A stretch of DNA of 64,000 nt from an uncultured virus (IMG/VR IMGVR_UViG_3300042319_002819) (IMGVR_UViG_3300042319_002819), one strand, 5' to 3'. Numbered from the stretch's first letter, positions 27,074 to 63,136 are shown. Translations and numbers: made by a program. Notes: a model not told the origin generated them from the sequence alone.

Positions 27074-28220
27074 TGTGTACCAACACTGGGATCCACTCCG
27101 GACTTGTGTTGTAGGTCGCGGTTACCCGCCTGAATTTTATTCGTGGATCCAGGTTCCGCATGTTCGAGAATTGTTTGAAAAAATGGCACAGGAGACCGAA
27201 GAAGATTACCAAAACATTGTTAAAAAATTAGAAAGTTTTGGAGTTAAAGTTTTTCGTCCAGAGTTGCCTAGTACAACAATGATTGGTGGAAAGCACATGC
27301 CTCCACCCATGACTCCCAGAGACGAGCATATTATGTTGGGTACAACATTTTATGAAAATTGGAGTTTTAATTTCAGTGACGTTTACAAAAAAGCCAAAGA
27401 TGTAACATGGCCCGAATGTAATTCTTACGAAGAATTTTTGTCCTTGCCATCACACATACAAGATGAATGCAACGAAAGATATCAATTCAGTGAATGGTAT
27501 CATTATAAAAATGGTTATGCACACATTTACAAACACATCGAAGAGCAAGGCAATTTAATTAAACACCATGCGCATTTTAGTCATGGTGCATTTCGTTGCC
27601 CAGGTGCAATGATCAGCAGGATTGGCCAGGATCTCTTTTTTGGCACACCCGAATATCCAACAACCACAGTGAAATTTCCCTATAACTATCAGCAGATAAT
27701 CGATGAAGAGTGCCCAAATACAAGGAATCACATTGTGTACACAGGTGGTCACAGTGACGGCACTTACTGTCCAGTTGCACCCGGTTTAATTATCAGCTTG
27801 AAGGATGTGCCTACCTATGCTGAAACTTTTCCAGGCTGGGAAGTGATATATTTGCCTGAACAAAGTTGGGGTGCCATACAACCTTTCTTGCATCTTAAAA
27901 ATAAAAATCGTGGCAAATGGTGGATCCCGGGATTTGAATACGACAGTGATGTCATTGACTGTGTTGAGACTTGGTTAAATCATTGGACTGGATATGTAGA
28001 AGAAACTGTGTTTGATGTCAACATGTTGATCATTGATCCTAAAAATGTCATGGTATTCAACTACAACAAACAAGTATTTGACGCACTAGATCGTCACGGA
28101 ATTACTCCACACATTGTACCATTTAGACATAGATATTTTTGGGATGGCGGCATTCATTGCGTCACAATGGATCTTCACCGAGAAGGTGTTCGTCAAGACT
28201 TTTTTCCTGGACGCTTATGA
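27066..28220 (+). CDS. second amidinotransferase with inserted ~40-aa WP.C module
   Basis: QHWDPL, PMTPRD, GHSDG, FDVNML, WDGGIHCVTMD; insert YKKAKDVTWPECNSYEEFLSLPSHIQDEC. Confidence 0.85.
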   Translation: MYNVYQHWDPLRTCVVGRGYPPEFYSWIQVPHVRELFEKMAQETEEDYQNIVKKLESFGVKVFRPELPSTTMIGGKHMPPPMTPRDEHIMLGTTFYENWSFNFSDVYKKAKDVTWPECNSYEEFLSLPSHIQDECNERYQFSEWYHYKNGYAHIYKHIEEQGNLIKHHAHFSHGAFRCPGAMISRIGQDLFFGTPEYPTTTVKFPYNYQQIIDEECPNTRNHIVYTGGHSDGTYCPVAPGLIISLKDVPTYAETFPGWEVIYLPEQSWGAIQPFLHLKNKNRGKWWIPGFEYDSDVIDCVETWLNHWTGYVEETVFDVNMLIIDPKNVMVFNYNKQVFDALDRHGITPHIVPFRHRYFWDGGIHCVTMDLHREGVRQDFFPGRL

Positions 28221-28504
28221 ATGCACTTTTAAAACCCACCGTTGATTGGATACAAGATGACTTTAAGTCTAACAGAATTCGCTTTGTTGTTGAGCTTCTC
28301 GCTTGGGCTATTAGCATTGGTTGCAGTATTACTATGGCACTCACAGTCCCCACTCCACCGCTTCTTACTCTTTATCCTATTTGGATTATTGGCTGTGCCA
28401 TGTATGCTTGGGCTAGTTGGACTAGGAAATCTTTTGGCATGCTGGCTAACTACATCTTGCTGACCACTATTGATAGTGTTGGCCTTGCACGTATGATTTT
28501 GTAA
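28217..28504 (+). CDS. small membrane protein (3 TM)
   Basis: ATGA-coupled; hydrophobic helices. Confidence 0.7.
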   Translation: MNALLKPTVDWIQDDFKSNRIRFVVELLAWAISIGCSITMALTVPTPPLLTLYPIWIIGCAMYAWASWTRKSFGMLANYILLTTIDSVGLARMIL

Positions 28505-28533
28505 CAAAATTGTAACATGATTCTCCTTAAATA
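28499..28533 (+). promoter_or_regulatory. Pho box upstream of pstS
   Basis: TTGTAAC-AAAA-TTGTAAC direct repeat with 11-bp period, then TAAATA at 28528. Confidence 0.7.
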
Positions 28534-28558
28534 ATCTTGTCACAACAAGGAGAACTCA

Positions 28559-29560
28559 GTGAACAAACTACTAGCAATTTTATTAGCCGCAGTAACACTT
28601 TCAGCAAACGCAGATATTACAGGTGCTGGCGCAACTTTCCCATTCCCAATCTATGCCAAGTGGGCTGAGGGATATAAGAAAACCACAGGTACCAGTTTAA
28701 ACTATCAGAGTATTGGTAGTAGTGGTGGTATTAGACAGATTAACGCAAAAACAGTTGACTTTGGTGCAACAGATGCTCCAGTAAGTGGAGAAAACTTAGA
28801 CAAGAATGGACAAGTGCAGTTCCCTGCTATTATCGGCGGAACAGTTCCTGTAGTTAACTTAGATGGTTTCCGACCAGGCGAACTACGCATCACTGGTCCG
28901 GTTATGGCAGAAGTATTCTTGGGAAACATTACCAAGTGGAATGATCCTAAATTATTAGCATTGAATCCCGGCAAGACATTACCAGATCAACCTATCACTA
29001 TTGTACATCGTGCTGATGGTAGTGGTACAACATTCAACTGGACAGATTATCTTGCCACAGTAAGCCCTGAGTGGCTACAGCGTGTAGGTCGTGGTGCCGC
29101 AGTTAAGTGGCCGGCGGCAACAGCAGTTGGTGGCAAAGGCAATGAAGGTGTTGCAGCCAACGTGAATCGTATTAAAGGTTCAATTGGCTATGTAGAATAT
29201 GCTTATGTTAAGAAAAACAACATGACGTTCCTACAACTACAAAACAAATCAGGCAAATATGTTAGTCCAGATGATTTAACATTTGCTGCCGCGGCAGACG
29301 GTGCTGATTGGTTCTCAGTTCCAGGTATGGGACTCAGCATTGTGGATCAAAAGAATCCTAATGCTTGGCCAGTAAGTTCAGCCAGTTTCATCATTATGTA
29401 CAAAGAACCAAAGAGCAAAGCTACCAGCGATGAAGTATTAAAGTTCTTTGACTGGGCATTTAAGAATGGTAAGAAAGATGCTGTAGATTTAGATTATGTA
29501 CCATTACCTGATGCACTAACAAAGCAGATCCGTGAGCGTGTTTGGACACAGATCAAGTAA
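28559..29560 (+). CDS. pstS: phosphate-binding protein PstS
   Basis: Signal peptide, ITGAGATFP, YQSIGSSGG, DFGATD, HRADGSGTT. Confidence 0.97.
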   Translation: MNKLLAILLAAVTLSANADITGAGATFPFPIYAKWAEGYKKTTGTSLNYQSIGSSGGIRQINAKTVDFGATDAPVSGENLDKNGQVQFPAIIGGTVPVVNLDGFRPGELRITGPVMAEVFLGNITKWNDPKLLALNPGKTLPDQPITIVHRADGSGTTFNWTDYLATVSPEWLQRVGRGAAVKWPAATAVGGKGNEGVAANVNRIKGSIGYVEYAYVKKNNMTFLQLQNKSGKYVSPDDLTFAAAADGADWFSVPGMGLSIVDQKNPNAWPVSSASFIIMYKEPKSKATSDEVLKFFDWAFKNGKKDAVDLDYVPLPDALTKQIRERVWTQIK

Positions 29561-30704
29561 ACAAGTAATCAAGGCTATGACCATACTTGGTTCGATAGCC
29601 TTGTTCACTTAAAAATGGCAGGTGATCCACGGCAATGTTAGTGCCGTCACTCAGCAACATGATCCAGTGATTGTTTGTTAGTATTTCTTTTTTGAGTCTA
29701 TACAAACTGGCCTGGCCACTGTTTACTTTGGTCTTGGTTTGATGATAATTGTAATTTTTATCAAACTCAAAAATATAATCTTTAAAAAACTGCTTGTAAG
29801 AAGAAAACTTTTTGTTGGGCAACAGTTGGTCAACATTGTGCCACATGTAATCATCAAACTGTTGGCAGTAGAAAAACGAAGTCTTGTCACCGCCTGGCTC
29901 CTGCATCAGAGCTGTAAGCCGTGCCCCGCCGCGATTTCTACAACACATATAATACCACCAACGTGCATGCAACACAGTTTGTATGGGTCGCTGACTTCTA
30001 GCAAAGAACTCTTCACAGTAATTAACAAACTCAGTGTTTTGAGTTTTTTCATAGAAAAAATTCTGCCAGGGTTGATTGAGTCCATGCCATCCTAGCCGCT
30101 CAAAAAAACTTTGATCCAAACTAGCAGTGATATCGTCACCGGCTGCTCCGTCAACAAACATACCATCAACGGTTTGTTCCATGTAAACATCACCGCCCAT
30201 CTCCAGCATCTCAAGTTCTGGATGTTGTTCTAGTAACAGGAAAAATCCCGGGTTTTCTTTGCGGCTGGTCACGGAATACATTATCCGCACACGATTTAGC
30301 TCTTTGCAGTGTTTTAAAAATCCCACAACCATGGAAGTAGAGTCAATGCCGCCGCTCCAGAACAAATTGATTTTATGAGATCCTTGGCACAGCTCATCAA
30401 TTCTAGATTTAAAGCAACTGTCTAGATCTAGATTTGTGGTGGGACGAGTCCAAGCACGTTCAACGTACATTTGATAGGGCATGCGAGTTTGCAATGTTCG
30501 ATCTCGAACATCGCCAGCTGGCCTTGATGAAAAACAAAGATTGATGTCCAACAAGTAGTTGTACTCATCAAAACCTTTTATCTTTTGATGATGCCCGTTC
30601 CATCGATCGGGAGTAGCGCAAGTGGGCGAGTATTCAAGGCCATGATATGTGAGTATTTTTTGAAAGTACGGCCATACTGTGAGTGATATTGATGGTGGCA
30701 TCAA
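29553..30704 (-). CDS. PP-loop (asparagine-synthase-like) ATP pyrophosphatase-fold protein
   Basis: INLFWSGGIDST; later G..GD motif. Confidence 0.65.
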   Translation of the reverse strand: MMPPSISLTVWPYFQKILTYHGLEYSPTCATPDRWNGHHQKIKGFDEYNYLLDINLCFSSRPAGDVRDRTLQTRMPYQMYVERAWTRPTTNLDLDSCFKSRIDELCQGSHKINLFWSGGIDSTSMVVGFLKHCKELNRVRIMYSVTSRKENPGFFLLLEQHPELEMLEMGGDVYMEQTVDGMFVDGAAGDDITASLDQSFFERLGWHGLNQPWQNFFYEKTQNTEFVNYCEEFFARSQRPIQTVLHARWWYYMCCRNRGGARLTALMQEPGGDKTSFFYCQQFDDYMWHNVDQLLPNKKFSSYKQFFKDYIFEFDKNYNYHQTKTKVNSGQASLYRLKKEILTNNHWIMLLSDGTNIAVDHLPFLSEQGYRTKYGHSLDYLFT

Positions 30705-30976
30705 GAACTTATGTCAGTGATTAAATCAATTTCGCTTAGTAATAAAGTCAGTGTTTGATCACCGTAGTCTTCGGGATCTTCGGTGGTGAAATCTCTGATT
30801 TTAATCAACAGTTGGTGTTCGTAGTCTGCTAGTTGAATCAGCAAACGAAGCCGGCGCTTTGCTCTCACCGGATCGTCACCGTAGGCCACTAAATCTTTTA
30901 ATATTTTTTCTCTAGCCTGTGTGATATAGGTCAATACTTTGTAGATCAACCTTGGCTTGAGGAACGCCGAATTCAT
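30701..30976 (-). CDS. hypothetical protein
   Basis: 91-aa ORF in minus-strand run. Confidence 0.6.
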   Translation of the reverse strand: MNSAFLKPRLIYKVLTYITQAREKILKDLVAYGDDPVRAKRRLRLLIQLADYEHQLLIKIRDFTTEDPEDYGDQTLTLLLSEIDLITDISS

Positions 30977-30979
30977 GTG

Positions 30980-31207
30980 TTACTTGGCTGCTTCTGATTT
31001 GGGTTTTCTAGGAGCTCTAGGTTTAGCTGGAGTCTTGGGTGCGGCAGCTTTCTTTTCAAACTGTTGCTTTTTGGCCGGGGCCTTGGGTGCCACTGATTCA
31101 ACCTTGACTTCGGGAGTAGGGTTAGGTGCCACTGCTTCTACCTTGTAAGGTACTTCGACCACAACAGGTTGTTTGCCTGTAAAAAACTCTTTAATTTTAT
31201 TGAACAT
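30980..31207 (-). CDS. Lys/Ala/Pro-rich basic protein
   Basis: AGGAG RBS, TAAATA upstream; KAPAKK/KPRAPRKPK tail. Confidence 0.7.
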   Translation of the reverse strand: MFNKIKEFFTGKQPVVVEVPYKVEAVAPNPTPEVKVESVAPKAPAKKQQFEKKAAAPKTPAKPRAPRKPKSEAAK

Positions 31208-31208
31208 A

Positions 31209-32261
31209 CTATGTTTCTCCTAGTGTTCTATTTACACAATTTTTTATTTCCAAGCACATTTTCCTTTGCCAATCAGTTTGCATTACAAGCTGAAAATTAT
31301 GTTCTAGTATTTCTTCAATTTGTTGGGATATAATTATTGGATCCCGGCGACAAAGTTGTTCTACCTGTTCCAACACTAACTCAGTGCGTTTTTTAACATT
31401 GGGCTCAAGATCGTAAGATTCATCAATGACAGTGCTAAATGTCATGAATCCCAGTGCTTTTAAATTTTTAAGATAGTATTGCCCAGCGACTACAACAAAC
31501 AATCTTTTTGCTATCAAGCACTTGAGTATTTTTTCAGTGAAGAACGTTAATTCATTGTCGGGCATGGTTTCGGCCACCAGTGAATAATGGGTTTGATTGT
31601 AGATATCAATGGGCAAGATTTGACTCAAACTTACTATGACTCCGTCAACCATCACCTCCTGTGCTGTGAAATTTACTGGCTCCACTGACAGTGGAAGTAC
31701 TTCCACAGGCCATGAAAAATTACAATCGTTGTATTGTGTGATGTCAAGATCCTGATGCGATGGAAAATATTTTACAATGTTTTGTTGCTTGTTGATTGTA
31801 TCATAGATTTGATCTCGATGTGGTTTTTGCCGGCCTAACAACACATCAAAGTATTTGTGTTTTGGCACCGCAGTAAGTAGATTTAAAACCTCGGGGAAAG
31901 CGTGATAAAATGCAGTGGTGCTCCAGAACCAGTAAGTGCAAAAATTTATCTGTGCATGCGACAGGGTGTAATTTAATGCACCACTGACAAAAAATACCAC
32001 GTTGTCAAAATCAAATGTTTTACACCATTGATGATCGGTTAACTCAATTATAACAACAATTGCCAGCGCAGAATTTTGCTGACATTTTGCAACTAACTGG
32101 TCAGTGTTGTCGTTGAATTCTACAACATCAACTAAACTAACCCTAGTTTCTTTTGGTTGTAAAATCCAATCATCCCAATCTCGAAAAGTCATGTAATTGT
32201 CAAGCTCGGACTGCGACAACCACCATTCAGCTTGGTCAGTTGTTATATAAACGTTGTACAT
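31209..32261 (-). CDS. GT10-like putative glycosyltransferase (paralog 3)
   Basis: FDVLLGRQKPHR, YSLVAET, FFTEKILK, GFMTFSTVIDESYD. Confidence 0.6.
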   Translation of the reverse strand: MYNVYITTDQAEWWLSQSELDNYMTFRDWDDWILQPKETRVSLVDVVEFNDNTDQLVAKCQQNSALAIVVIIELTDHQWCKTFDFDNVVFFVSGALNYTLSHAQINFCTYWFWSTTAFYHAFPEVLNLLTAVPKHKYFDVLLGRQKPHRDQIYDTINKQQNIVKYFPSHQDLDITQYNDCNFSWPVEVLPLSVEPVNFTAQEVMVDGVIVSLSQILPIDIYNQTHYSLVAETMPDNELTFFTEKILKCLIAKRLFVVVAGQYYLKNLKALGFMTFSTVIDESYDLEPNVKKRTELVLEQVEQLCRRDPIIISQQIEEILEHNFQLVMQTDWQRKMCLEIKNCVNRTLGET

Positions 32262-32301
32262 ATACGTATTTAAGTTGGTTGTTTGTGGTCATAACTACTT
32301 T

Positions 32302-33006
32302 ATGACAGAAATTCTTACAACATTGGTGTTGACACACATCACCATACTATGCGTTACTCTTTATTTGCATCGCAGTCAAGCCCACCGTGGTGTGGAATTC
32401 CACCCCGCTGTATCACATTTCATGCGCTTCTGGCTGTGGCTCACCACGGGAATGGTTACCAAGCAATGGGTTGCTGTACACCGCAAACATCATAGATTCA
32501 CAGAACAAGACGGCGATCCGCATAGTCCACATGTGTATGGCTTTTGGCGTGTGTTATTCAAGGGAGCAGGACTTTATCATTCAGCAAGCAAGGACTCTGC
32601 TATGGTAGCACAATATGGAGCAGGCACACCAAATGATTGGATGGAACAACATGTGTACACCAAACACAGTCGTGCAGGCATTGTGCTTATGTTATTAATA
32701 GACCTGCTAGTATTTGGTTTGCCCGGTTTTGTAGTTTGGGGTGTTCAGATGATATGGATTCCATTCTGGGCCGCAGGAGTTGTCAATGGTGTGGGACACT
32801 GGCTGGGATATAGAAACGGTGAAACCAAAGACCTTAGTCAAAATTTCAGTCCCTGGGGCATTGTTATAGGCGGCGAAGAACTGCACAACAATCACCACCT
32901 TGATCCCGCCAGTCCTAAATTAAGTAGACAATGGTTTGAGTTTGATCTAGGATGGTCTTGGATCAGTTTGTTAAAATTTTTGGGTCTAGCCCAGGTAAAA
33001 AATTAG
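32302..33006 (+). CDS. desA: membrane fatty-acid (delta-9 acyl-CoA type) desaturase
   Basis: His boxes HRSQAH, HRKHH, LHNNHH; DPHSP; WFEFDLGW. Confidence 0.92.
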   Translation: MTEILTTLVLTHITILCVTLYLHRSQAHRGVEFHPAVSHFMRFWLWLTTGMVTKQWVAVHRKHHRFTEQDGDPHSPHVYGFWRVLFKGAGLYHSASKDSAMVAQYGAGTPNDWMEQHVYTKHSRAGIVLMLLIDLLVFGLPGFVVWGVQMIWIPFWAAGVVNGVGHWLGYRNGETKDLSQNFSPWGIVIGGEELHNNHHLDPASPKLSRQWFEFDLGWSWISLLKFLGLAQVKN

Positions 33007-33035
33007 TGACCATTCACTAATAAAAATCTTGAATC

Positions 33036-33057
33036 ATGTTGCACTGCAACATAAATA
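33036..33057 (+). promoter_or_regulatory. palindrome ATGTTGCACTGCAACAT (PhaR-like) fused to TAAATA
   Basis: Perfect 8-1-8 palindrome; near-identical copy at 40679-40699 on minus strand. Confidence 0.65.
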
Positions 33058-33072
33058 ATGCTACAATAAGAC

Positions 33073-33127
33073 ATAGGGTGCTGAATAGGTCGGGCCCTGT
33101 AGTAAACTCGCTTAATAGGAGAAATTT
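33073..33127 (+). promoter_or_regulatory. ROSE-like structured leader
   Basis: Hairpin 33073-33100, then CUCGCU-uaau-AGGAG; resembles the hsp20 leader. Confidence 0.55.
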
Positions 33128-37648: not shown

Positions 37649-38635
37649 ATGAAGACAAACATTAACGTGCAAATATGTGGAGACCATTGGGTAAATTCTG
37701 ACGAAGTACTGGCCCAGTTAAACAACGCCAACAACACACAGAACATTGTGCTAGACATGAATACCGAAGGCGGTAGCCTGTATGCCCTGGGCATTGCAGA
37801 TTCTTTGTTGACAGTGTGCACACAGCGCGACATTGATGTAAAAAAAGTGTTCATTGACAATTGGCCCAACGCTGTAGAACAAATACCATTTACACGAGTT
37901 TACACACCCATAGTCAGCCATTTCTTTTGGCTCAGTGAAAATTACTGGTTGCAAGAAATACCAACATCAACGCATGAATATAGATTTGGTTATTTTATGG
38001 GTAGAAAAACTCCTTCAAGGGCAGTGATGCTGTATGAGTTGAACCAACAGCACAGCAATGATTTTCTTTTCAGTGCCATGCAAACACGCGGCCCTATGCC
38101 ATGGCAAGTCGGCATGCCCGGCAAATACTTGGAACATCTTGAAGATTGGTTGCCCGCCAATCAGCATCAATCATTCAATGAATGGTGGAATACATGTCCG
38201 GTCAAGAGCTTAGATCAGCGCCAAGTCAGTGATCAATATGATCCAGCTTACAATACCAATCGTAGCTTGTTAGAGCACTACTCAAAATTTGACATTGAGC
38301 TAGTGGCCGAAACTTACACCTTGGGCACCACATTCTTTCCCACAGAAAAAACTGTGAGACCCATCATGGCCGGACGTCCCATGTTGGTGTACGGCCCACG
38401 GAACTTTTTAGAAAATCTACAGCAACTGGGGTTTAAAACTTATGCAGATTTCTGGGATGAAAGCTACGATCAATTTTCTGGACCCGAAAGATGGCATAAA
38501 ATACATCAAGTCATTGACACATTTTTAACAATGCCCAACAGAGATCAATTAAATGCTGTCAAGGCCATGCAACAGATTGCCAACTACAATCGCCAACATC
38601 TAGTGAATCTAATTAAACGGTATCGCCCCACATGA
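37649..38635 (+). CDS. GT10-like putative glycosyltransferase (paralog 4)
   Basis: FGYFMGR...SR, IELVAET, FPTEKTVRPI, GFKTYADFWDESYD. Confidence 0.6.
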   Translation: MKTNINVQICGDHWVNSDEVLAQLNNANNTQNIVLDMNTEGGSLYALGIADSLLTVCTQRDIDVKKVFIDNWPNAVEQIPFTRVYTPIVSHFFWLSENYWLQEIPTSTHEYRFGYFMGRKTPSRAVMLYELNQQHSNDFLFSAMQTRGPMPWQVGMPGKYLEHLEDWLPANQHQSFNEWWNTCPVKSLDQRQVSDQYDPAYNTNRSLLEHYSKFDIELVAETYTLGTTFFPTEKTVRPIMAGRPMLVYGPRNFLENLQQLGFKTYADFWDESYDQFSGPERWHKIHQVIDTFLTMPNRDQLNAVKAMQQIANYNRQHLVNLIKRYRPT

Positions 38636-39624
38636 TTATTCGCACCATAGACCAAGGATGGGGGCAGGAATGGCCCTTGAAACAATTTGAAAAAGAATTG
38701 CTAGACCAGTATCTAGCACCAGTGTCCCGGGATGCAAGTCGTACAGTGGTCATCAACAGTATCTGGTACACTGATCAGTTGCATGCCCAAACACTCAATG
38801 AATTGCGACAACTTGACTTTGATCAAATTGTGCTGTTGGCTACCCTAGACTGTGCAATACCACACCCAGAATGGTTTGCTGAATTTGACTGCAAAGTGTT
38901 GGCCGTGGGCTACTATCCAGGTGCAAACTACTTGGATTTCTGGGCACTGGTTGTTGATCGATTTTTTGCCATGCCCGACTATGCCATCAATGATCCCACC
39001 ATGATAGACACTGCCTACATGTGTTTGAACAGAAAGCCGCACTGGCACCGACGACAAGTTTATCAACAACTCAAAGATGCTGACTTACTGGATCATGGTA
39101 TTGTCAGCATGGGTGGCGATGACGAATATCCGCCACAGCGCATTTTGTTATTAGACGATGGCCAAACCGATATTGCACCCAATCCTGGTCCCGGACAACA
39201 CGGCATTGCCAATGACATTGCAAGCTTGGGGCATAGAAAAAATTGGCAACGACACTTGTTAAATGTTGTCACAGAAACAGTGTGGGACATTGATCATCAT
39301 CATTTTGTCAGTGAAAAAATATTCAAACCCATGCTGGGACAACGACCGTTTATAGTGTATGATCCAACGGGAGCAACAGCGTGGCTGACGCATCGAGGTT
39401 TTGAGACCTACTATCAGGATTTTAGTGACATTGCTGACTTTGATATTGCACCGGCAGGTCAGCAAGTACAGTTTTTAACTAACCTGTGCGCACAACCCAA
39501 CTCATATTGGTTGTCCAAGTATGTTGCGCTACAGGACAAGATACTGTATAATAAAAACAGATTCAGTGAATATGTCACCGAACAACAGGTTAAAATTAAA
39601 CAAGGAATACAATGCCAAACTTAG
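38632..39624 (+). CDS. GT10-like putative glycosyltransferase (paralog 5)
   Basis: [36 protein letters not shown]. Confidence 0.6.
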
Positions 39625-40205
39625 TCCCCATCGTTCTTGAGCAAACATCAAAAGGCGAACGAAGTTACGACATTTACAGTCGTCTGCTCCGAGATCGTAT
39701 CATCATGCTGGACACCGAAGTTGGTGAACATACTGCCAGTTTAATTGTTGCTCAAATGTTGTTTTTAGAAAGTGACAACCCTGACAAAGACATTAGTTTT
39801 TATATCAACAGTCCTGGGGGTAGTGTCACAGCCGGGATGGCCATCTACGATACCATGCAGTTTATCAAGTGCGATGTGCACACTATTGTCATGGGGCAGG
39901 CCTGTAGTATGGGTTCATTGTTGGCCACAGCCGGAGCACCGGGCAAGCGTTATATTTTGCCCTATGCTCGACACATGATCCATCAACCTTCGGGTGGTGC
40001 ACGTGGGCAGGCTACGGATATTCAAATCCAAGCCCGCGAAATACAAAAAATGAAAGAATATTTGACCAACATCTATGTCACGCACAATACCGCAGGAAAA
40101 ACCTATGCAGAATTGAGTGCTGACATGGAACGTGACTTCTTCATGAGTGCAGAAGAGTCAGTGGCCTACGGCCTAGCCGACAAGATTATCACCCGGCGTG
40201 ATTAA
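39612..40205 (+). CDS. clpP: Clp protease proteolytic subunit ClpP
   Basis: [39 protein letters not shown]. Confidence 0.97.
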
Positions 40206-44627: not shown

Positions 44628-45605
44628 TTAGAACAGGTGTTGTACTGACACAACAGTGGCAGTGGTATCTTTGGCGTTCAATGTTTTGTAATCTTCCTTC
44701 AACCAACGAGCATGCAACCATGTTCGCTTGCTGAGTGCATAACTGGCACCCAAGTTTTGGCTGTCAATTTCAACTGCACCAGTTTTCTTGCCCACGCTGG
44801 CCAACAGCAACAACTGTGGCTGAATCCAGTAACCAACATTTACGCTAGAGCCAGTAGAGTCCAGGCCAAGAATTTTGTCCTTAGAGTACACTGTACTCAA
44901 CTGTAATTGCTTGTTGGCACGGAACGTGGCACCGTATGCTGTGCTCTTGTTGATGCCACCATCATCAATTGTGGCAACACCCACTGACACACGATTAGCG
45001 TCATATTCAACGCGAGTACCAATAGTATCAGGTTTGCCAGCTACTTCGCTCAAGGTGTGTTGATATGCAACCAACATTCCTTTAACAGGTCGCGCAGTCA
45101 AAAACACTGTGTTATTTGCACGTATGCCGTGTACATCATGAATGTTGGGACCTAGGTAATAATCTAGAAACAAAAATGAACTATAATACTTTTCATGCAT
45201 GTTTACCAAAACATGCTTGTCACGACCTGCCTTGAGCTCAAACATGCCATTGCGCAAACCCACAACGCTGGCACGATCACCAATTGATGTGGCAGCCACA
45301 GTGCCTCGCGGAGCATCGGCTGCAAATCCAGTTTCGATGTTGTAAAATGCAGTCAACCCGCCACCAAGATTTTCACTACCACTAAAACCAATACGGCTGC
45401 TCAGATTGGTCATGGTTGTAAGGTCACCGGCTGCGCCAACACTTTGGTTGGCAATGCCAGTGTGTACTTGACCGTATATATTGATGGTACTGGACTTGGC
45501 TTCACCGACACCTCGGAAAGGTTGGTCAACTTGGGCAAACGCAGTCACAGTGCCAAGCATTACAGCGGCACCAAATAGCATTGATGCTAATTTAGATTTT
45601 TTCAT
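44628..45605 (-). CDS. Gram-negative trimeric porin (betaproteobacterial type)
   Basis: Signal peptide, INIYGQV, SRIGFSGSENLGGGLTA, Y.LSKRT, C-terminal H.F. Confidence 0.9.
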   Translation of the reverse strand: MKKSKLASMLFGAAVMLGTVTAFAQVDQPFRGVGEAKSSTINIYGQVHTGIANQSVGAAGDLTTMTNLSSRIGFSGSENLGGGLTAFYNIETGFAADAPRGTVAATSIGDRASVVGLRNGMFELKAGRDKHVLVNMHEKYYSSFLFLDYYLGPNIHDVHGIRANNTVFLTARPVKGMLVAYQHTLSEVAGKPDTIGTRVEYDANRVSVGVATIDDGGINKSTAYGATFRANKQLQLSTVYSKDKILGLDSTGSSVNVGYWIQPQLLLLASVGKKTGAVEIDSQNLGASYALSKRTWLHARWLKEDYKTLNAKDTTATVVSVQHLF

Positions 45606-46130: not shown

Positions 46131-46160
46131 AAAAAGCCACCGCCTAGGTGGCTTTTTCTT
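46131..46160. terminator. intrinsic terminator
   Basis: aaaaagccacc-gccta-ggtggcttttt. Confidence 0.85.
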
Positions 46161-46171
46161 TAAATACTGCT

Positions 46172-47089
46172 ATGAAAATAACAGGTCTGCATATTGAGCC
46201 CACTAATATATGCACGTTGAAATGCAGTGGATGTGCTCGAACTCGATTTATACAAAAATGGCCTCAGCATTGGCGGAACCACAGCATTGACGTTTCTAGC
46301 TTGATGCAGTTCCTGGACATTGATTTGCAAAACATCAACATTGAATTTTGCGGCAATTACGGTGACCCAATCTATCATCCCAACTTTGTTGAAATGGTGG
46401 CAGCCTTCAAACAACGTAGCGCCAACATAGCCATCACCACCAATGGCAGTTACCGAACACCAAGTTGGTGGAATGAATTGTGCGACCAACTAGGTCCCAA
46501 CGATGTAGTACGATTCAGCATTGACGGCATGCCTGACAACTTTACCCAATACCGAGTAAACGCAGACTGGGAGTCAATCAAACTTGGGATTACTGCCTGC
46601 GTTGACCGTGGCATTAAAACAATTTGGAAATTTATACCGTTTTCATTCAACGAACTTCAAATCGAACAAGCTCGACTACTAAGCCAGGACCTGGGCATGT
46701 CTGAGTTTGTGGTCAATCTCAGTGATAGGTTTGATCAGCAAACTGTGCATTTGATCCCAAGTAGCTCGCTGGTGGGCAAGAAAAAAACTGTGCACGAGCA
46801 CCAACAACAGGGCCAACAATACGCAGTTGAGCCCAAATGTCTGCAGAGACGCGGCGAACATTTTATAACTGCCACCGGACACTATGCTCCGTGCTGTTTT
46901 GTTGCTGACCATAGATTTTACTACAAAACGCCGTTTGGTAAAAACATAGACAGCTACAACATAGCCAACACCACATTCACCAAGTTACTTGGAGAAGAAT
47001 CGGTGAAGAGTTTTTACCAGACCATAACTGATCAGCCACCAAACGTGTGCCAATTTAACTGTCCGGGCACAACCCCAGTTGACCAATAA
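46172..47089 (+). CDS. radical SAM enzyme with SPASM/twitch-like C-terminus
   Basis: CTLKCSGC, GNYGDP, TNGS, FSIDG, C...G..APCC, C..NC; TAAATA 5 nt upstream. Confidence 0.88.
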   Translation: MKITGLHIEPTNICTLKCSGCARTRFIQKWPQHWRNHSIDVSSLMQFLDIDLQNINIEFCGNYGDPIYHPNFVEMVAAFKQRSANIAITTNGSYRTPSWWNELCDQLGPNDVVRFSIDGMPDNFTQYRVNADWESIKLGITACVDRGIKTIWKFIPFSFNELQIEQARLLSQDLGMSEFVVNLSDRFDQQTVHLIPSSSLVGKKKTVHEHQQQGQQYAVEPKCLQRRGEHFITATGHYAPCCFVADHRFYYKTPFGKNIDSYNIANTTFTKLLGEESVKSFYQTITDQPPNVCQFNCPGTTPVDQ

Positions 47090-56463: not shown

Positions 56464-56481
56464 CCAACTGTTTTCCCAACC

Positions 56482-57078: not shown

Positions 57079-57261
57079 ATGATAGTACATTATGCGTCTG
57101 CCAGCCAAGTTGTTGGCGATAACAATACTGAATCAGAATATCGATTAACAGGAAAAAAATTTCAGGTAATCGAATTTGATGCCAACACTTGTTCTTTGTT
57201 ACTAGAACAAGCCGAGGCTCAAGGGATAGAAGTAGTCATCATCAAGGAGAAATCAACATGA
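57079..57261 (+). CDS. hypothetical protein
   Basis: Follows TTGACA..TATAAT; no RBS. Confidence 0.45.
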   Translation: MIVHYASASQVVGDNNTESEYRLTGKKFQVIEFDANTCSLLLEQAEAQGIEVVIIKEKST

Positions 57262-57449
57262 CAACACAACACGAACAAATCGTCGCCGCCTACGAAACAT
57301 ACATTGCTGAAAACGCAAAGTTCAGCGAAAAAGGTGTCAAGGCCGCTGCCGCTCGTGCTCGCAAAGCATTGCAAGAAATGAGCAAGGGCATCAAAGAGCG
57401 TCGCAAAGAAATCACTGCTGAAAAAGAAGCATTGACTGTAGCCAAATAA
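57258..57449 (+). CDS. histone H1-like (Hc1-type) DNA-binding protein
   Basis: KF.EKG.KAAAARARKAL.E......E.RKEI. Confidence 0.8.
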   Translation: MTTQHEQIVAAYETYIAENAKFSEKGVKAAAARARKALQEMSKGIKERRKEITAEKEALTVAK

Positions 57450-57463
57450 TCAAAAACAGAGAC

Positions 57464-57955
57464 ATGCCAATTTCAACTATATCTATAGATGAGCTGGCTG
57501 GTATCAATAACCTCAACGATACCATGTCAACTGTTGACTTTTTAAGTTCGTCAAACACCGTTGATACAATCACGCTGACTTCGCCATCCTATAGTTTTTC
57601 AAATTCAACAATGAGTGGGGCAGTGTTGACCGCTGGCTCAAACGGTAGCAACACTATTTGGGGCACAGGCACATCAGGCTTGAATGGTACAAGTGCTGCC
57701 AAACTCAATCAACAAGGTATGTTGAGTTTAAAAGGTGACAAGGCTGACATTGACATCAATGGTGTGAGTCTAATGAAAACTTTGACCAGTATTCAAGAGC
57801 GACTCAACATATTAACACCTGCGCCTGAGCTTGAAAAAGATTGGGATCAGCTACGCGAGCTCGGAGAGCAATATAGAAAATTAGAGGCCGAGTTTGAAGA
57901 AAAAAGTAAGATGTGGAAAACACTAAAAGCCATGCCACCACCGGAGATAGAATGA
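57464..57955 (+). CDS. hypothetical protein
   Basis: Ser/Thr-rich N-terminus, ADIDING, coiled-coil C-terminus. Confidence 0.7.
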   Translation: MPISTISIDELAGINNLNDTMSTVDFLSSSNTVDTITLTSPSYSFSNSTMSGAVLTAGSNGSNTIWGTGTSGLNGTSAAKLNQQGMLSLKGDKADIDINGVSLMKTLTSIQERLNILTPAPELEKDWDQLRELGEQYRKLEAEFEEKSKMWKTLKAMPPPEIE

Positions 57956-58770
57956 CACCTAAACAACGAATCAAACACATAGTCAAGTGGACCAACACCT
58001 ATGCCAAGATTGCCAAAATTAACACTTTAGTGGTGGGAATTTCAGGCGGCATTGACAGCAGTGTGGTCAGTGCCTTGTGTGCAGAAACAGGTTTGAAGAC
58101 CATTGTGGTGCAGATGCCTATTCGTCAAAACAAAAAATTAGACAATCGCAGTTCAATGCAGGCCACTTGGTTGATGGAACGTTACAAAAACGTCACACAC
58201 ATAAGCATGGACTTGACCAAGGTGTTTGATGCATTTGAAAAAAATCTCATACCTTATTGCAGGGAAAATGAAGATGAACAAAGGGTTGACCTTGGCTTTG
58301 CTAATTCACGTGCTAGACTACGCATGATGACCCTGTACCAAATTGCACAAAGCCATGGTGGTATTGTGGTGGGCACAGGCAACCGGGTAGAAGACTTTGG
58401 TGTAGGCTTTTTTACCAAGTATGGCGACGGCGGTGTAGATATCAGCCCTATTGGTGACTGTATGAAAACTGCGGTATGGGACATGGGCAGAGAATTTGGC
58501 CTGCCACAAGAGATTATTGACGCACCTCCCACAGATGGATTGTGGTCAGATGATCGCACCGATGAAGACCAACTGGGTATGAGCTATCCAGATTTAGAAC
58601 GTGCTATGACCAATGATGAACATGATCGTCAGTGTGTGTATGAAACTTTGCCAATTGAGTTGGGCAAAGAAGAACGAGCACAGCTCAAGAAGTATCGAGC
58701 AATTCGAGCTAGAAACTTACACAAAATGTTGCCAATTCCAGTTTGCACAATGCCCAAGGACACCAAATGA
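57952..58770 (+). CDS. nadE: NH3-dependent NAD+ synthetase
   Basis: [47 protein letters not shown]. Confidence 0.93.
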
Positions 58771-59093
58771 CCCATGTGGTAACTGAATCTTGCATCAAAT
58801 GCCGGTACACTGATTGTGTGGATGTGTGCCCGGTGGACTGTTTCAAAGTAGGTCCTAACTTTTTGGTGATTGATCCAGATGAGTGCATTGACTGTGCAGT
58901 TTGTATTCCAGAATGTCCGGTCAATGCCATCTACGCCGAAGAAGATGTTCCACAAGATCAACTTGAATTTGTAATGTTAAATCGAGAATTGGCCAAGTCT
59001 TGGCCCACTATCTCAAAAAGAGTTGCTCCGATTGCTGATGCCGATGAATGGGCCAAAGTTGTTGTAAAAAAACAACACTTAGATCGTGGTTGA
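58767..59093 (+). CDS. fdxA: 7Fe ferredoxin
   Basis: [31 protein letters not shown]. Confidence 0.93.
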
Positions 59094-59118
59094 CTGATAA
59101 TACTACACCTGCTATAAT
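59060..59118 (+). promoter_or_regulatory. N8 palindrome plus sigma70 promoter inside the fdxA 3' end
   Basis: tgttg-taaaaaaa-caaca 59060; TTGACT-17-TATAAT. Confidence 0.8.
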
Positions 59119-59123
59119 ATAGC

Positions 59124-59354
59124 ATGTTTAAGAATTCTACAGGCCTTGCCGTTAAAACTCTGCGTCCCGGAGATGCTGATTTCACATTCTCGCCCGATGG
59201 CATTCAACTGGTGTCACGAGCGGCATTTGAGATCAGCAATAACTGTCCTGCTGAATACAAGAGTATCTTTATCACCGCCATCAACGCAGGTTGGCTCAAA
59301 CCCGTTGCCTACATGCTTGAAACCGAATATACCATGGAGTTACTGCGCAAATGA
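59124..59354 (+). CDS. hypothetical protein
   Basis: ATG 5 nt after TATAAT. Confidence 0.65.
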   Translation: MFKNSTGLAVKTLRPGDADFTFSPDGIQLVSRAAFEISNNCPAEYKSIFITAINAGWLKPVAYMLETEYTMELLRK

Positions 59355-59515
59355 TTGATGACAACGAAGTTGACGAGAAAGACATTGCCTACTCTGCGGA
59401 ATATGATGCCTACTACAATCAAAGAACCAACGAGTGGATCGACCACAAGTGCTGTGATCTCACCTGTGAGTTTTGTACAAAACGCCCTGCACGACCTTTG
59501 AAAGATCAATTATGA
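59351..59515 (+). CDS. small Cys-containing protein (54 aa, not in ORF track)
   Basis: YDAYY...NEWI..KCCDLTCEFC.KRP; ATGA-coupled both ends. Confidence 0.65.
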   Translation: MIDDNEVDEKDIAYSAEYDAYYNQRTNEWIDHKCCDLTCEFCTKRPARPLKDQL

Positions 59516-59913
59516 GCATGCATTTACATCACCCTGCACTTTCCTACAACGGCAAAAAACGCGGCAAGGTCAAGTTTCGCAATGCTGAAGAAGCACGTAA
59601 GGCACGTGAGCTTGACGCAAGCTGGAAAGAACTGCAAAAGAAGTGGGAAGTAGACGCAGAAGATAAAAAGCGTCGTCGAGCCATGAGCGCACCACCTTTG
59701 GCCGGCAACTATAGTTTGACCATCCCAGAAGGGCGTAGTACTAGACATATCCCAAGTCTTAACAATGGGGTGGATAATGGCAATGCTACTATGTCCCCTC
59801 CCAAGGTATATACTGGCACCAAGGTCAAAGGCATTGGTACCATGCACAAAAGCAATGCAGTTCCTATCTTCAGCGATGAGGAGGCCATTGCTATTTCTAA
59901 TATGAGACGATAA
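59512..59913 (+). CDS. conserved T4-like hypothetical protein
   Basis: YTGT.+KGIGTMHKSNAVPIF....A..IS.MRR. Confidence 0.8.
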   Translation: MSMHLHHPALSYNGKKRGKVKFRNAEEARKARELDASWKELQKKWEVDAEDKKRRRAMSAPPLAGNYSLTIPEGRSTRHIPSLNNGVDNGNATMSPPKVYTGTKVKGIGTMHKSNAVPIFSDEEAIAISNMRR

Positions 59914-60129
59914 ATGAACACAGAAGTAAAAACAGATGTCAGTGGCAAGTGGGTAGCAAGAGAAAATGTTGACGCCATTGTCAAAAGTACAGTGCAAGAA
60001 TGCATTGACATTCTAAACGATCAAAAAAATTACAATCGATGCATGTACACAACATCTGACTTGGATCGAGCCAAATGCGTAACTAGTGAGTTAATTAAAA
60101 CAATCAAACAACGATTTGAAATAAAATGA
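59914..60129 (+). CDS. hypothetical protein
   Basis: V.ECI motif similar to 53792 ORF. Confidence 0.6.
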   Translation: MNTEVKTDVSGKWVARENVDAIVKSTVQECIDILNDQKNYNRCMYTTSDLDRAKCVTSELIKTIKQRFEIK

Positions 60130-60971
60130 AAATTTACGTGACTAGTGATCTTCACCTTGAGTTTGGCGATTGCACAATCAAAAACGAGCACAACGCTGAC
60201 GTTTTAATCTTGGGTGGCGACATTATGTTGGCCCAGGATCTACACGACCATCCAGAAAGCTCGCACTTGCTTACTGGAGCAATGTTAGAAACTCTAGGCC
60301 CTAACCAAAAAAAAGCAGTTCGGTTCCGAGAGTTCTTGAGCAGATGTAGCTTTCAGTTTCCGCACGTGATCTATGTGGCCGGCAACCATGAGTTTTATCA
60401 TGGCAAGTGGCCCATTGGCTTGCAATACCTGCGAGATGAATGCGCCAAGTTTCCCAATGTTTACTTCATGGAAAACGATTGCCAGACCATTGACGACATT
60501 ACCTTTGTTGGATGTACGTTGTGGACTGACATGAACAAAGGTGATCCTTTAACACTTCATGCTGTGGCTGATATGATGAATGATTTTAAAATCATTCGCA
60601 ACAGTGATCTTGAGTTTGCAAAGTTGCGCCCGGCACATGTGGCTCAGGCACACAAGAAAAGTGTGGGGTATATTAGGTCAGTCATTGCAGAACAGCATGA
60701 CAAAAAATTTGTGGTTGTGGGACACATGTCGCCCAGTCGCATAAGCACTCATCCCAGGTACGCTGATCAAACTCTCATGAATGGGGCCTACAGCAGTAGC
60801 CTAGATGAGTTTATTTTAGATCATCCACAAATTAAACTTTGGACGCATGGACACACTCATGAAGATTTTGACTACATGATTGGATCAACTCGTGTTGTGT
60901 GTAATCCACGTGGTTATGTTAATTACGAAGAACGTGCCGACACATGGACACCAAAACTAGTAGAAATCTAA
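60126..60971 (+). CDS. calcineurin-like metallophosphoesterase
   Basis: SDLHLE, GGD, AGNHEFY, HGHTH, CNPRGY. Confidence 0.9.
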   Translation: MKIYVTSDLHLEFGDCTIKNEHNADVLILGGDIMLAQDLHDHPESSHLLTGAMLETLGPNQKKAVRFREFLSRCSFQFPHVIYVAGNHEFYHGKWPIGLQYLRDECAKFPNVYFMENDCQTIDDITFVGCTLWTDMNKGDPLTLHAVADMMNDFKIIRNSDLEFAKLRPAHVAQAHKKSVGYIRSVIAEQHDKKFVVVGHMSPSRISTHPRYADQTLMNGAYSSSLDEFILDHPQIKLWTHGHTHEDFDYMIGSTRVVCNPRGYVNYEERADTWTPKLVEI

Positions 60972-61165
60972 TATTCCAGTATCCAGTTAAATTGACCTGG
61001 GAAAGAAACCCCAAGTGGAATGAAATTTGCGCTTGGGGGATTGAACATTTTGGCTTGCCAGGCCATCAATACACAACTGAAGTTTGTGAAGAATACATGT
61101 GCTGGAACTTTGCCAGCGCACAAGATCAACTTTTATTTGTAACAGCATGGGGAAATGACCAATGA
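60944..61165 (+). CDS. hypothetical protein (F...D..LF...W family)
   Basis: CAW..EHFGLPG ... F....DQLLF...W. Confidence 0.6.
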   Translation: MDTKTSRNLIFQYPVKLTWERNPKWNEICAWGIEHFGLPGHQYTTEVCEEYMCWNFASAQDQLLFVTAWGNDQ

Positions 61166-61515
61166 ACTTTGAAGAAACCGCAATGTGGCAACGCCTAAGC
61201 AACGGTGATGCCAACTATTATACCAAAGCCGCAGAATCAGAACGCACAGCATTTCGTGTTTGGCTCAAAGGCCTGCTACAAGAACAACGAATCACTGTGG
61301 AATTTGAAAAAGCTGATGGTACTACACGGGCCATGGTTTGTACCTTGAGTGAAGAAAACGGTGCTAAGTATGTAGTTAATGAGACCAAAGGAGATGCTGC
61401 CACACCCAAGAAGAAACCCAACGATGATGTGTGCGCAGTCTGGGACTGTACGCAAAACGCATGGCGAAGTTTTCGTTGGGATAGACTAAAGAGGATTGAA
61501 TTTTCAATTGAGTAA
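61162..61515 (+). CDS. WYL-like/SH3 beta-barrel phage protein
   Basis: VEF.KADGT.R.M.CTL ... VWD....AWRSFR. Confidence 0.8.
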
Positions 61516-61726
61516 AGAAGAAGGTTTAAGGGTTGAGGGCACAGTATTTGACATCTTGCCCAATGCCACGTTTCGTGTAAAAGTTGATGTTCTTGGAACA
61601 TCAGTACTGGGAGTGATTTCAGGCAAGATGAGGAAAAACAACATTCGCATTTTGCTGGGTGATCGAGTAGAAATGGAATTCAGCCCCTATGATCTCACTC
61701 GCGGCCGAATTGTTCGTAGAAAATAA
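61508..61726 (+). CDS. infA: translation initiation factor IF-1
   Basis: [39 protein letters not shown] start. Confidence 0.93.
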
Positions 61727-63136
61727 ATGTCAACTTGGCAAGAGTTTTATCAACAGATCCGAGATCCCAGTTGGCCAGACTGTGTTGCCGAAGAAGATTT
61801 TATCACATTACCCAACCATATACAACAAGAATGCCAACAGCAGTTTGGATATGTGCCCGGGCAATTTCGAAAAACATCCAAGCTGACACAACGAGTATTC
61901 CCCATACACACAGCGACTGCCTGTCAGTTAAAATGGAATTGGAGTACTTTGTATCTTACCACAGAAAAAACTGCCAGCTGTCATAGAACCAACCATCACT
62001 TGTTTGATGTTGGCGAATTTGATTTTCATAACACACCGTCCAAGTTAGAAGATCGATCACGCATGCTGGAAGGGCAGTGGCCCGAGAAAGGATGTGATTA
62101 CTGTCGTAACATCGAAGCAGCCAACGGACAAAGCGACAGAATCACCAATTTAGATTTTCCAGGCATGCATGCGCCACACGAGCTTGACGGAAATCCCCTA
62201 GCGGTTCGCGTTACTCCTAGAATATTAGAAGTTTACTTTGACAACACCTGCAACTTGAAGTGCCTGTATTGTGGTCCTTACTTCAGTAGTTTATGGGACG
62301 CTGAAAACAAAAAGCACGGTACCTTTCGAAAAAATGATTTGACAATATCTGCGGAATTTGTCAAGAGTGCCAATATTGACAACAACAAACAGCGATTGTT
62401 TGAATGGTTAAAAAAGAATTCACAGCACTTGACTGTGTTTAATATCTTGGGTGGCGAGCCGTTGTATCAAGACGAACTTGATCAATGTTTGGATTTGTTT
62501 GACAAATACCCGGCACCCGAACTCAAGCTACAAATTTTTACCAACCTAAATGCCAAGTTGTCTCGAGTGCAACACCTGGTAGAACGGGTACGGGAACTTA
62601 TCAACGCTGATAAATTGCGAGAATTTGAGATAACAGCCAGCTTGGACTGTTGGGGCGCACCACAGGAGTATGTACGCTATCCGTTAGATCTTCAAGTGTG
62701 GCAGGAAAATTTTGAATACCTATTAGAGCAAGACTTTATTAATCTAATTATAAGTTCCACAGTGACCCCACTGACTATAAAAACTCTGCCAGATTTACTG
62801 GCACGGATACAAATCTGGGGACAGCGCAGAAAAATATACCACTATCAAAATTCAGTTAACTCGCCATCTTACTTGGAAATTGATGTGTTTGGGAATATAT
62901 TCCGCAGTGATTTCCAACAAGCACTGGAGTTGAAACCTGTTGTGACTCCCGAAGAAATTTCCAGTCGTGACTATCTACTAGGTATAGCAAAACAATCAGT
63001 CAGTGGTGCCCCTAGAATTTCTGAAATACAAAAACTCTATGATTTTCTAACAGAAATAGATCGCAGAAGAAACACCAACTGGTTTGATGTTTTTCCATGG
63101 CTGCAATCAGAATTTGATAAGCACAATATAAAATAA
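61727..63136 (+). CDS. radical SAM enzyme with N-terminal WP.C module and twitch-like Cys region
   Basis: CNLKCLYC, GGEP, FTN, ASLD; N-terminus WQEFYQQIRDPSWPDC...DF..LP.HIQQEC. Confidence 0.88.
   Translation: MSTWQEFYQQIRDPSWPDCVAEEDFITLPNHIQQECQQQFGYVPGQFRKTSKLTQRVFPIHTATACQLKWNWSTLYLTTEKTASCHRTNHHLFDVGEFDFHNTPSKLEDRSRMLEGQWPEKGCDYCRNIEAANGQSDRITNLDFPGMHAPHELDGNPLAVRVTPRILEVYFDNTCNLKCLYCGPYFSSLWDAENKKHGTFRKNDLTISAEFVKSANIDNNKQRLFEWLKKNSQHLTVFNILGGEPLYQDELDQCLDLFDKYPAPELKLQIFTNLNAKLSRVQHLVERVRELINADKLREFEITASLDCWGAPQEYVRYPLDLQVWQENFEYLLEQDFINLIISSTVTPLTIKTLPDLLARIQIWGQRRKIYHYQNSVNSPSYLEIDVFGNIFRSDFQQALELKPVVTPEEISSRDYLLGIAKQSVSGAPRISEIQKLYDFLTEIDRRRNTNWFDVFPWLQSEFDKHNIK

Follow-up and report, generated by a model that had tools for sequence, protein, structure and literature searches.

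A portable module of about 40 residues on unrelated phage enzymes, with a possible role in docking

We examined a stretch of 64,000 nucleotides from an uncultured virus (IMG/VR IMGVR_UViG_3300042319_002819). The whole of this stretch, referred to below as the window, appears to come from the genome of a very large phage. Two of its genes, separated by 34 kb with unrelated genes in between, encode an amidinotransferase-fold enzyme and an N-terminal-twitch (N-twitch) radical SAM enzyme that share a segment of about 40 residues centred on a W-P-x-C string. We call this segment the module. The features on which the analysis turns are the following.

23516..24433, + strand: amidinotransferase-like paralogue of 305 residues without the module, an internal control (BLASTP, alignment, no profile match)
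27066..28220, + strand: amidinotransferase-fold enzyme of 384 residues with the module as an internal insert (profile against PDB, AlphaFold2 model, Foldseek)
27363..27491, + strand: module copy 1, profile envelope (hmmsearch), residues 100-142 of the amidinotransferase
46148..47089, + strand: second radical SAM enzyme, 313 residues, without the module (PF04055, E 2e-11; no profile match)
61727..61858, + strand: module copy 2, profile envelope (hmmsearch), residues 1-44 of the radical SAM enzyme
61727..63136, + strand: N-terminal-twitch radical SAM enzyme of 469 residues with the module at its N-terminus (NF033640, CNLKCLYC motif)

The core of copy 1 (27372-27482, + strand) translates to FSDVYKKAKDVTWPECNSYEEFLSLPSHIQDECNERY, residues 103-139 of its open reading frame (ORF), and that of copy 2 (61736-61846, + strand) to WQEFYQQIRDPSWPDCVAEEDFITLPNHIQQECQQQF, residues 4-40. 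The initial annotation of the window had reported both stretches, and translation of its coordinates showed the positions to be exact. When the two whole carrier proteins were compared by BLASTP, a single significant segment was returned (14/35 identical, 28/35 positives, ungapped, E 7e-9), and in an all-against-all comparison of 38 window ORFs the pair was linked by the module only (E 1.7e-7). As DNA, the two copies are 56% identical. Scanning a six-frame translation of the window with a profile made from 211 module instances, all filters off, recovered copy 2 at E 5.5e-23 and copy 1 at E 1.6e-16, with the next best frame at 0.46; the 64-kb window contains exactly two copies. The second enzyme of each kind had been described as lacking the module, and this was found to be so: the ORF at 23516-24433 is gapped at the corresponding place and has no profile match, and there is likewise no profile match in the ORF at 46148-47089. 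The nearest related record, a 13.6-kb fragment (G001), contained no module copy.

Both enzyme names given in the initial annotation, amidinotransferase and radical SAM, proved correct. For the former, a family profile run against PDB sequences matched StrB1 (1bwd) at E 1.2e-33, HsvA at 3.3e-26, human AGAT at about 1e-23 to 4e-24 and SxtG at 3.2e-20, the amidinotransferase entries concerned being 1bwd, 5wpi, 1jdw and 6u1r. An AlphaFold2 model of the protein had a mean predicted local distance difference test score (pLDDT) of 82 and a predicted template-modelling (TM) score of 0.86, and its best Foldseek matches were AGAT, SxtG, HsvA and StrB1 (E 2.6e-18 to 1.7e-15, TM 0.57-0.66). On sequence and modelled fold, the protein has the amidinotransferase fold of the GME superfamily. 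The strings PRD (D86), GGHSDG (H229, D231) and GGIHC (H364, C365) are conserved in 90-100% of 24 sequences; their Cys, His and Asp are candidates for the catalytic triad known from AGAT.

Comparison with the module-less paralogue (BLASTP E 2e-10 over residues 1-373 of the carrier) gave an alignment with a gap that spans the module together with about 40 residues of extra helices after it. Similarly, 332 residues of the carrier fall on only 265 profile positions of phrog_25854. The gap and the mismatch in length together indicate that the module is an insertion into the amidinotransferase fold. The residues of the paralogue that MAFFT aligns opposite the module read Y-x-x-I-V-D ... L-x-M-P ... 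E; this faint echo of the module positions Y8, [IV]11, D13, L28-P29 and E35 may be chance or a decayed remnant, and lies below detection by the 211-instance profile.

The radical SAM carrier matched NF033640 (N_Twi_rSAM) above its curated cutoff (220.2 bits, cutoff 170) over residues 64-460 and profile positions 3-395 of 398, and its translation holds CNLKCLYC, the CxxxCxxC motif of the radical SAM cluster. With the family model starting only at residue 64, the module precedes it and forms no part of it, being an N-terminal addition to the enzyme. A word-index protein search with the module region of this enzyme gave 34 matches, namely 33 orthologues (456-471 residues), in which the N-terminal module is kept, and P0038. 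The equivalent search with the amidinotransferase copy gave 2 matches, and the breadth of the module became visible only by profile search. The N-terminus of the radical SAM enzyme, MSTWQEFY..., may also bear some resemblance to the capsid targeting sequence of phage T4. That sequence is a signal of about 10 residues on internal proteins, short, linear, cleaved and strictly N-terminal. The module fits it poorly, because it is frequently internal or C-terminal; moreover, the Q-E pair of MSTWQEFY is poorly kept (Q5 in 42/202 and E6 in 34/202 module copies).

Structure prediction describes the module as an independently folding protein domain of about 40 residues, one that is without annotation. 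Its consensus is W-x2-F-Y-x2-[IV]-[KR]-D-P-S-W-P-[DE]-C-x5-F-x2-L-P-x-H-I-Q-x-E-C. AlphaFold2, given copy 2 on its own with 49 aligned sequences, returned a model of pLDDT 80.3 with helices at 4-11, 22-25 and 30-38 and no strand: a helix, a 10-residue loop carrying D-P-S-W-P-D-C, a short helix, a Leu-Pro turn and a third helix. Modelled inside the amidinotransferase, the module again had three helices (103-110, 121-124 and 129-139), and 10-residue blocks over 101-140 had mean pLDDT values of 81-93. The likeness of the three helices alone and in the enzyme suggests that the module behaves as a self-folding unit.

Conservation was counted over 202 unique module copies. The tryptophan of the loop is invariant (W16, 202/202) and several other positions are nearly so: P17 and L28 (each 201/202), Y8 and [KR]12 (each 200/202), P29 and a Gln, Lys or Arg at position 33 (each 199/202), E35 (197/202) and C19 (196/202). 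Somewhat more variation is seen at D13 (187/202) and I32 (185/202), and considerably more at C36 (148/202) and His31 (93/202). C36 is replaced by Ile, Leu or Val in 53/202 copies, of which 51 retain C19, and C19 itself is Ile or Val in 5 copies. Two degenerate copies in the protein P0134 have likewise exchanged Cys for Ile (W-P-T-I-S and W-P-K-I-S). The module is acidic, with a mean net charge of -4 over 39 positions, and 96.5% of the 202 unique copies are negative. An EF-hand-like calcium loop, considered for the acidic D-P-S-W-P-D-C string, was rejected by eye because a proline occupies a ligand position.

The nucleotide sequences show at which level this conservation is maintained. Mean pairwise identity at codon positions 1, 2 and 3 of the module is 0.59, 0.69 and 0.40, respectively, and each invariant residue is encoded by 2-5 synonymous codons (5 for Leu, 4 for Pro). 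This variety of synonymous codons, together with the free third positions, indicates selection on the protein and not on the DNA.

A profile built from 10 sequences (A1) was run against 1.84 billion protein cluster representatives (clusters at 50% identity) and found 760 of them at E <= 0.001 and 156 at E <= 1e-10. We masked the module and clustered the 150 best representatives together with 53 unique ORFs from the viral loci described below and 3 reference proteins. The resulting 206 carriers fell into 37 host-protein groups. Of these, 13 contain several carriers (at least 2), 7 are single proteins of at least 200 residues and 17 are shorter single proteins, possibly gene fragments. The module had been described as portable, and the number of representatives and of host groups bears this out. 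Recurrence on many enzyme classes, mostly in phages, had been named beforehand as the outcome of a hidden Markov model search that would support the idea, and this was the outcome obtained.

The largest group, with 67 of the 206 carriers and 65 of the best 150 matches, is a family of about 400 residues that has no annotation and bears the module at its C-terminus. It is followed by the amidinotransferases (21 members, module internal), the DUF6492 proteins (15, C-terminal), a family of about 305 residues without identity (14, mid-protein), a radical SAM family of about 340 residues (13, after the core and sometimes in tandem), MTS-type methyltransferases (13, N-terminal), the N-twitch radical SAM family (11, N-terminal) and a second methyltransferase family (11). 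Smaller groups comprise Asp/Arg beta-hydroxylase-type oxygenases, Methyltransf_24 (TylF/CmcI-like) and PrmA-like methyltransferases. Only 32/150 of the best representatives have any Pfam match at E <= 1e-4; the labels among these 150 include Radical_SAM (12), MTS (6), DUF6492 (5) and Asp_Arg_Hydrox (2), as well as Methyltransf_24, Methyltransf_25/31 and PrmA. For the family of about 305 residues, searches of PDB and Pfam gave no identity.

The module is thus found at the N-terminus, internally, at the C-terminus or in tandem, and host groups differ widely in its median relative position within the host protein, which spans 0.05 to 0.94. P0041, P0043, P0049 and P0055 have copies in tandem, for example at 161-196 and 210-251 of a 404-residue radical SAM protein, and near-standalone forms of 77-85 residues consist of hardly more than the module. 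Modules from different host families have a mean identity of 0.45, and those from one host family a mean of 0.54. In the two families of about 400 and about 305 residues the module is better conserved than the enzyme body (0.53 vs 0.29 and 0.48 vs 0.36, respectively).

Some individual carriers deserve mention. P0139 (191 residues) combines a P9_TM segment (PF19066, E 4.5e-8; the family is named after the minor capsid protein P9) with a C-terminal module, and is a possible structural-protein context for it. P0213 (623 residues) fuses a DegT/DnrJ/EryC1/StrS-type aminotransferase (PF01041) to the core of the family of about 400 residues, here without the module; the fusion hints that this largest carrier family acts on sugars. 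We also considered this family as a GT10-like glycosyltransferase. PF00852 matched 0/36 members at E <= 1 and there was no PDB sequence match; with the P0213 fusion and a sequence motif as its remaining support, the candidate stays a lead, as does the nearest named entry in the ESM Atlas, Glyco_transf_10 at 0.78, all 30 neighbours there being unnamed viral clusters.

Where a context could be established it was viral. Two peptide patterns, applied to viral contigs, led to 109 confirmed relatives, of which 80 loci were kept; a scan of 185,579 bacterial and archaeal species (one genome each) with a single strict peptide pattern gave 88 pattern matches, of which 0 were confirmed. Within these scans, the module is found only in viral sequence. 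A tblastn search of 50,697 phage records with the 47-residue module, a query so short that it would recover close copies only, had no match at E <= 0.01. Searching isolated phages with the whole carriers found one homologue in a Ralstonia jumbo phage, which aligns from residue 55 and thus is without the module; the whole amidinotransferase carrier matched 4 records.

Neighbouring genes in the loci encode the gp23 major capsid protein, a protein weakly matching gp32, a RecA-family (UvsX-like) protein, a T4 baseplate protein and SegE, and the contexts of the module are T4-like myophage genes together with large records rated by CheckV as 21-91% complete. Ten records of at least 100 kb were rated 29-91% complete, which corresponds to genomes of about 350 kb. 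Among 15 large viral records, 10 hold one copy of the module, 4 hold two and 1 holds four, counts that are lower bounds, since fragments of 21-62% completeness make up the majority of the records. The 316-kb record that contains locus L051, the one rated 91% complete, has a single copy. Such single-copy records indicate that the module works without a second module-bearing enzyme. Two carriers lie at most 3 kb apart in 5/77 loci.

The flanking-ORF families with the weak gp32-like and the RecA-family (UvsX-like) matches recur in 25 and 22 loci, respectively; L010, L056, L064, L067, L068 and L072 are among the loci with such flanks. At L010 the two ORFs directly flank a gene for the carrier family of about 305 residues, one on each side, and from this arrangement the carrier gene appears to be fixed in position in T4-like genomes.

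That the module corresponds to no named domain, as first proposed, was upheld: no Pfam, PHROG, NCBIfam or PDB family covers it. Neither window copy had a significant match in Pfam-A, PHROGs v4 or NCBIfam 20.0, where the only return was SipA_VBS at E 0.12, which we took as chance, and when 49 module sequences were searched singly against Pfam no family was common to more than 4. The ESM Atlas gave no usable match. Nor did the isolated module match anything in a Foldseek search of the PDB (0 matches at E <= 10), and a VIA-align comparison with 48,161 chains had a best Z of 2.4 with nothing consistent, neither UBM nor headpiece chains being listed. With only 47 residues, such fold searches show neither a novel nor a known fold, and a headpiece fold is compatible with them. 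In the literature, titles and abstract openings retrieved with the core motif strings mentioned no protein motif, and those retrieved for phage twitch radical SAM enzymes, jumbo-phage amidinotransferases and pelagimyophage methyltransferases had nothing on such a module.

Four known systems invite comparison. The one that serves as a model for the proposed function is the RiPP recognition element (RRE, PqqD-like), a small domain present on many classes of tailoring enzyme, among them radical SAM enzymes and methyltransferases, and thought to recruit them to a shared substrate. However, the RRE is a winged helix-turn-helix of about 85-90 residues with a three-stranded beta-sheet, whereas the module has about 40 residues, three predicted helices and no strand, is viral and not bacterial, and lacks a Pfam or NCBIfam match; no precursor peptide gene was found. 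The analogy drawn in the initial annotation is therefore usable for function but not for fold.

The UBM, or ubiquitin-binding motif (PF14377; 2kwv, 2kwu and 2mul), is a feature of DNA polymerase iota, Rev1 and HUWE1. A small protein-binding unit that is likewise portable, it gave the sole PDB sequence similarity found for the module. Profile A1 had four weak matches among PDB sequences, all of them UBM chains (Pol iota 2kwv, E 0.019; 2mbb, 0.08; 2kwu, 0.94; HUWE1 2mul, 1.7). They align over 20-23 residues as P-x-C...F-x2-L-P-x2-I-Q-x-E, the helix-turn-helix around an invariant Leu-Pro for which UBMs are typical. However, the match is limited to the second half of the module, and the first helix and the W-P-x-C loop lie outside it. 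Pfam PF14377 did not match the window copies at E <= 1 and matched 1/49 members at E 0.12, short of the threshold, and these phages are not known to have a ubiquitin system.

The villin headpiece (PF02209) folds by itself into three helices within about 35 residues; its core is aromatic, and a Leu-Pro turn precedes its last helix. The order of helices and the position of the turn appear to resemble those predicted for the module; the Pfam VHP profile matched 4/49 members (best E 0.013), all below the curated cutoff. The module differs in its 10-residue loop between helices 1 and 2 and in being acidic, whereas the actin-binding face of the headpiece is basic. Docking domains of modular synthases and dockerin-type tags, finally, are short terminal helical units with no role other than to bring enzymes together. 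They work as cognate pairs at termini, whereas the module also occurs inside folds and mostly once per genome record, and no cognate partner domain was found for it. The module has no demonstrable membership in the UBM, villin headpiece or RRE families, and belongs among the small promiscuous adaptor or accessory domains.

We favour the idea that the module is an adaptor or docking domain that binds one conserved partner or substrate, and would give this a probability of about 45%. Its conserved acidic face would bind a single conserved, probably basic, macromolecular partner or substrate, belonging either to the phage or to its host, and would bring whichever enzyme carries it to that target in the manner of a recognition element or docking domain. 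One carrier per genome would suffice; here, the module equips an amidinotransferase-fold enzyme and an N-twitch radical SAM enzyme. Several observations argue for such a role. Polar positions are nearly fixed across unrelated hosts, and module identity between host families approaches that within them. In two families the module is conserved beyond the body that carries it, and tandem copies and near-standalone forms exist. The reading is plausible, and the best available for the function of the module.

Other results weigh against it. No binding partner of the module was found. In the amidinotransferase and N-twitch radical SAM families the module is less conserved than the body (0.49 vs 0.60 and 0.65 vs 0.72, respectively), and its conservation could reflect the needs of folding alone. 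For 123/180 copies the nearest module relative is in the same host family, which suggests that most fusions are old and vertically inherited. Lastly, the one strict pattern of the cellular scan could have passed over copies of divergent sequence in cellular genomes.

A bolder form of the docking proposal is possible but somewhat doubtful. It would make the module a virus-specific address label of aquatic jumbo and T4-like phages. Any tailoring enzyme to which it is attached (a radical SAM enzyme, methyltransferase, hydroxylase, amidinotransferase or sugar-active enzyme) would be delivered to a single target, conserved and basic, for instance a DNA-associated or virion protein, or a substrate that is itself a protein or peptide.

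Among the alternatives, we consider it unlikely, though deserving of serious attention, that the module is an intramolecular accessory with no shared partner: a stable helical cap for solubility or folding, or a lid, that has spread by tolerating any site of fusion. Predicted folding alone and in context, and a strong acidity such as solubility-enhancing tags have, are both in keeping with this, as are a module identity near 0.5 irrespective of host family, the single copy in most sampled genomes and the inheritance of most fusions within host families (the same 123/180). However, a passive solubility tag would have no need of near-fixed polar surface positions (D13, E35, [KR]12 and Q/K/R33), and proteins of 77-85 residues with little beyond the module exist. 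In addition, the window itself holds module-less paralogues of the same enzymes.

The initial annotation had seen in the module a means of tying scattered enzymes into one system, which in its most direct form would be a self-association tag that lets several module-bearing enzymes of a phage come together as a complex or pathway. That part of the proposal is weakened, and we regard self-association as improbable. The two carriers of the window fit it, as do the one record with four copies and the four with two, the loci with carriers within 3 kb of each other, and the tandem copies. However, 10/15 large viral records, including the 91%-complete one, have a single copy, a distance of 34 kb and a number of unrelated genes separate the window carriers, and a face of net charge -4 is a poor candidate to bind its own copy. 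A complex prediction pairing the radical SAM copy with the amidinotransferase copy scored 0.00, which gives no verdict and counts as evidence neither way.

That the module is a distant relative, or a convergent copy, of the eukaryotic helix-Leu-Pro-helix motifs (UBM and villin headpiece), binding a beta-grasp (ubiquitin-like) or filament protein, is very improbable. All four profile matches in the PDB are UBM chains, a module subgroup ending in ...IQxEI fits the UBM string best, and the predicted three-helix order with its Leu-Pro turn recalls the headpiece. However, these alignments cover 20-23 residues at marginal E-values, the UBM and VHP hits in Pfam (1/49 and 4/49) are all under curated cutoffs, neither family was listed by the structural searches (no match in Foldseek, best Z 2.4 in VIA-align), and nothing in the UBM alignment corresponds to the invariant W-P-x-C loop.

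A site for metal binding, redox chemistry or a disulfide on the two conserved cysteines (W-P-x-C and E-C) is more improbable still. It is favoured by the counts for Cys19 and Cys36, by the nearness of His31, Asp13 and Glu35, and by the Fe-S assembly proteins, ferredoxin and glutaredoxin that the window encodes. However, Cys36 gives way to Ile, Leu or Val in about a quarter of the copies (53/202), nearly always with Cys19 kept, Cys19 gives way to Ile or Val in 5, and His31 is present in fewer than half; such aliphatic replacements indicate buried hydrophobic positions and speak against ligands or cysteines that must pair. The last alternative is that the similarity arose by chance, or that an element acting as DNA, such as a recombination site, a regulatory motif or a mobile insertion, is read in frame by accident. 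It has only the shortness of the module to recommend it and can be dismissed, since the two copies score far beyond the next best frame, and the codon pattern, with third positions free and positions 1 and 2 constrained, together with just 56% DNA identity between the window copies excludes a DNA-level element or a recent transposition.

Returning to the docking proposal, its interest lies in the many orphan tailoring enzymes of aquatic phage genomes, such as radical SAM enzymes, methyltransferases, 2-oxoglutarate hydroxylases and amidinotransferases. One conserved tag common to at least 13 such families offers a single experimental handle, and finding its partner would show on what substrate, or at what site, the whole enzyme set acts. 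Were the address-label form true, the module would be a phage counterpart of the RRE and would point to one target common to hundreds of orphan phage enzymes. If it is only a folding or solubility cap, the gain in annotation is modest. A further gain is an unannotated domain family, represented by 760 clusters at 50% identity. Its length of about 40 residues suits the module to nuclear magnetic resonance and to peptide-level binding studies, and since it is accepted at either terminus or inside a protein, it could be of use as an insertable tag.

The remaining genes of the window are in keeping with a very large phage. They encode ribonucleotide reductase, ClpX, ClpP, ClpS, Hsp20, a PAAR protein, DNA ligase and NadE. 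The 12 best matches listed for the ribonucleotide reductase are 11 phages of 287-368 kb and, at the top, a phage of 168 kb. ClpX (with a zinc finger), Hsp20, the ClpS adaptor and ClpP, a near-complete proteolysis set, are encoded among 15996-17189, 18460-18933, 18977-19291 and 39612-40205. The PAAR-motif protein (8839-9114) overlaps the next ORF (9063-12470; 1135 residues with a C-terminal subtilase Peptidase_S8 domain), and the pair may form a spike-tip protein with an attached protease.

Genes for NifU-like and IscA-like proteins, a 4Fe-4S ferredoxin with DUF3470, a glutaredoxin and an Fe/Mn superoxide dismutase lie among 1371-2064, 8253-8528, 58743-59093 and 63141-63698; these Fe-S and redox proteins would provide support functions suiting two radical SAM enzymes. 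Host-like genes, for a PstS-like phosphate-binding protein, a Gram-negative porin and an Hc1 histone-H1-like protein, are found among 28559-29560, 44628-45605 (- strand) and 57189-57449.

Five ORFs of 323-446 residues (17203-18174, + strand; 20446-21786, - strand; 31209-32261, - strand; 37649-38635, + strand; 38632-39624, + strand) have in common a C-terminal region of about 100-190 residues (pairwise BLASTP E 3e-14 to 4e-5). None of the five has a Pfam match, and they look like an unannotated paralogue family spread over 22 kb and both strands. Finally, two metallophosphoesterases (19288-20073, - strand, and 60126-60971, + strand) lie 40 kb apart and are paralogous (BLASTP E 1.5e-14).

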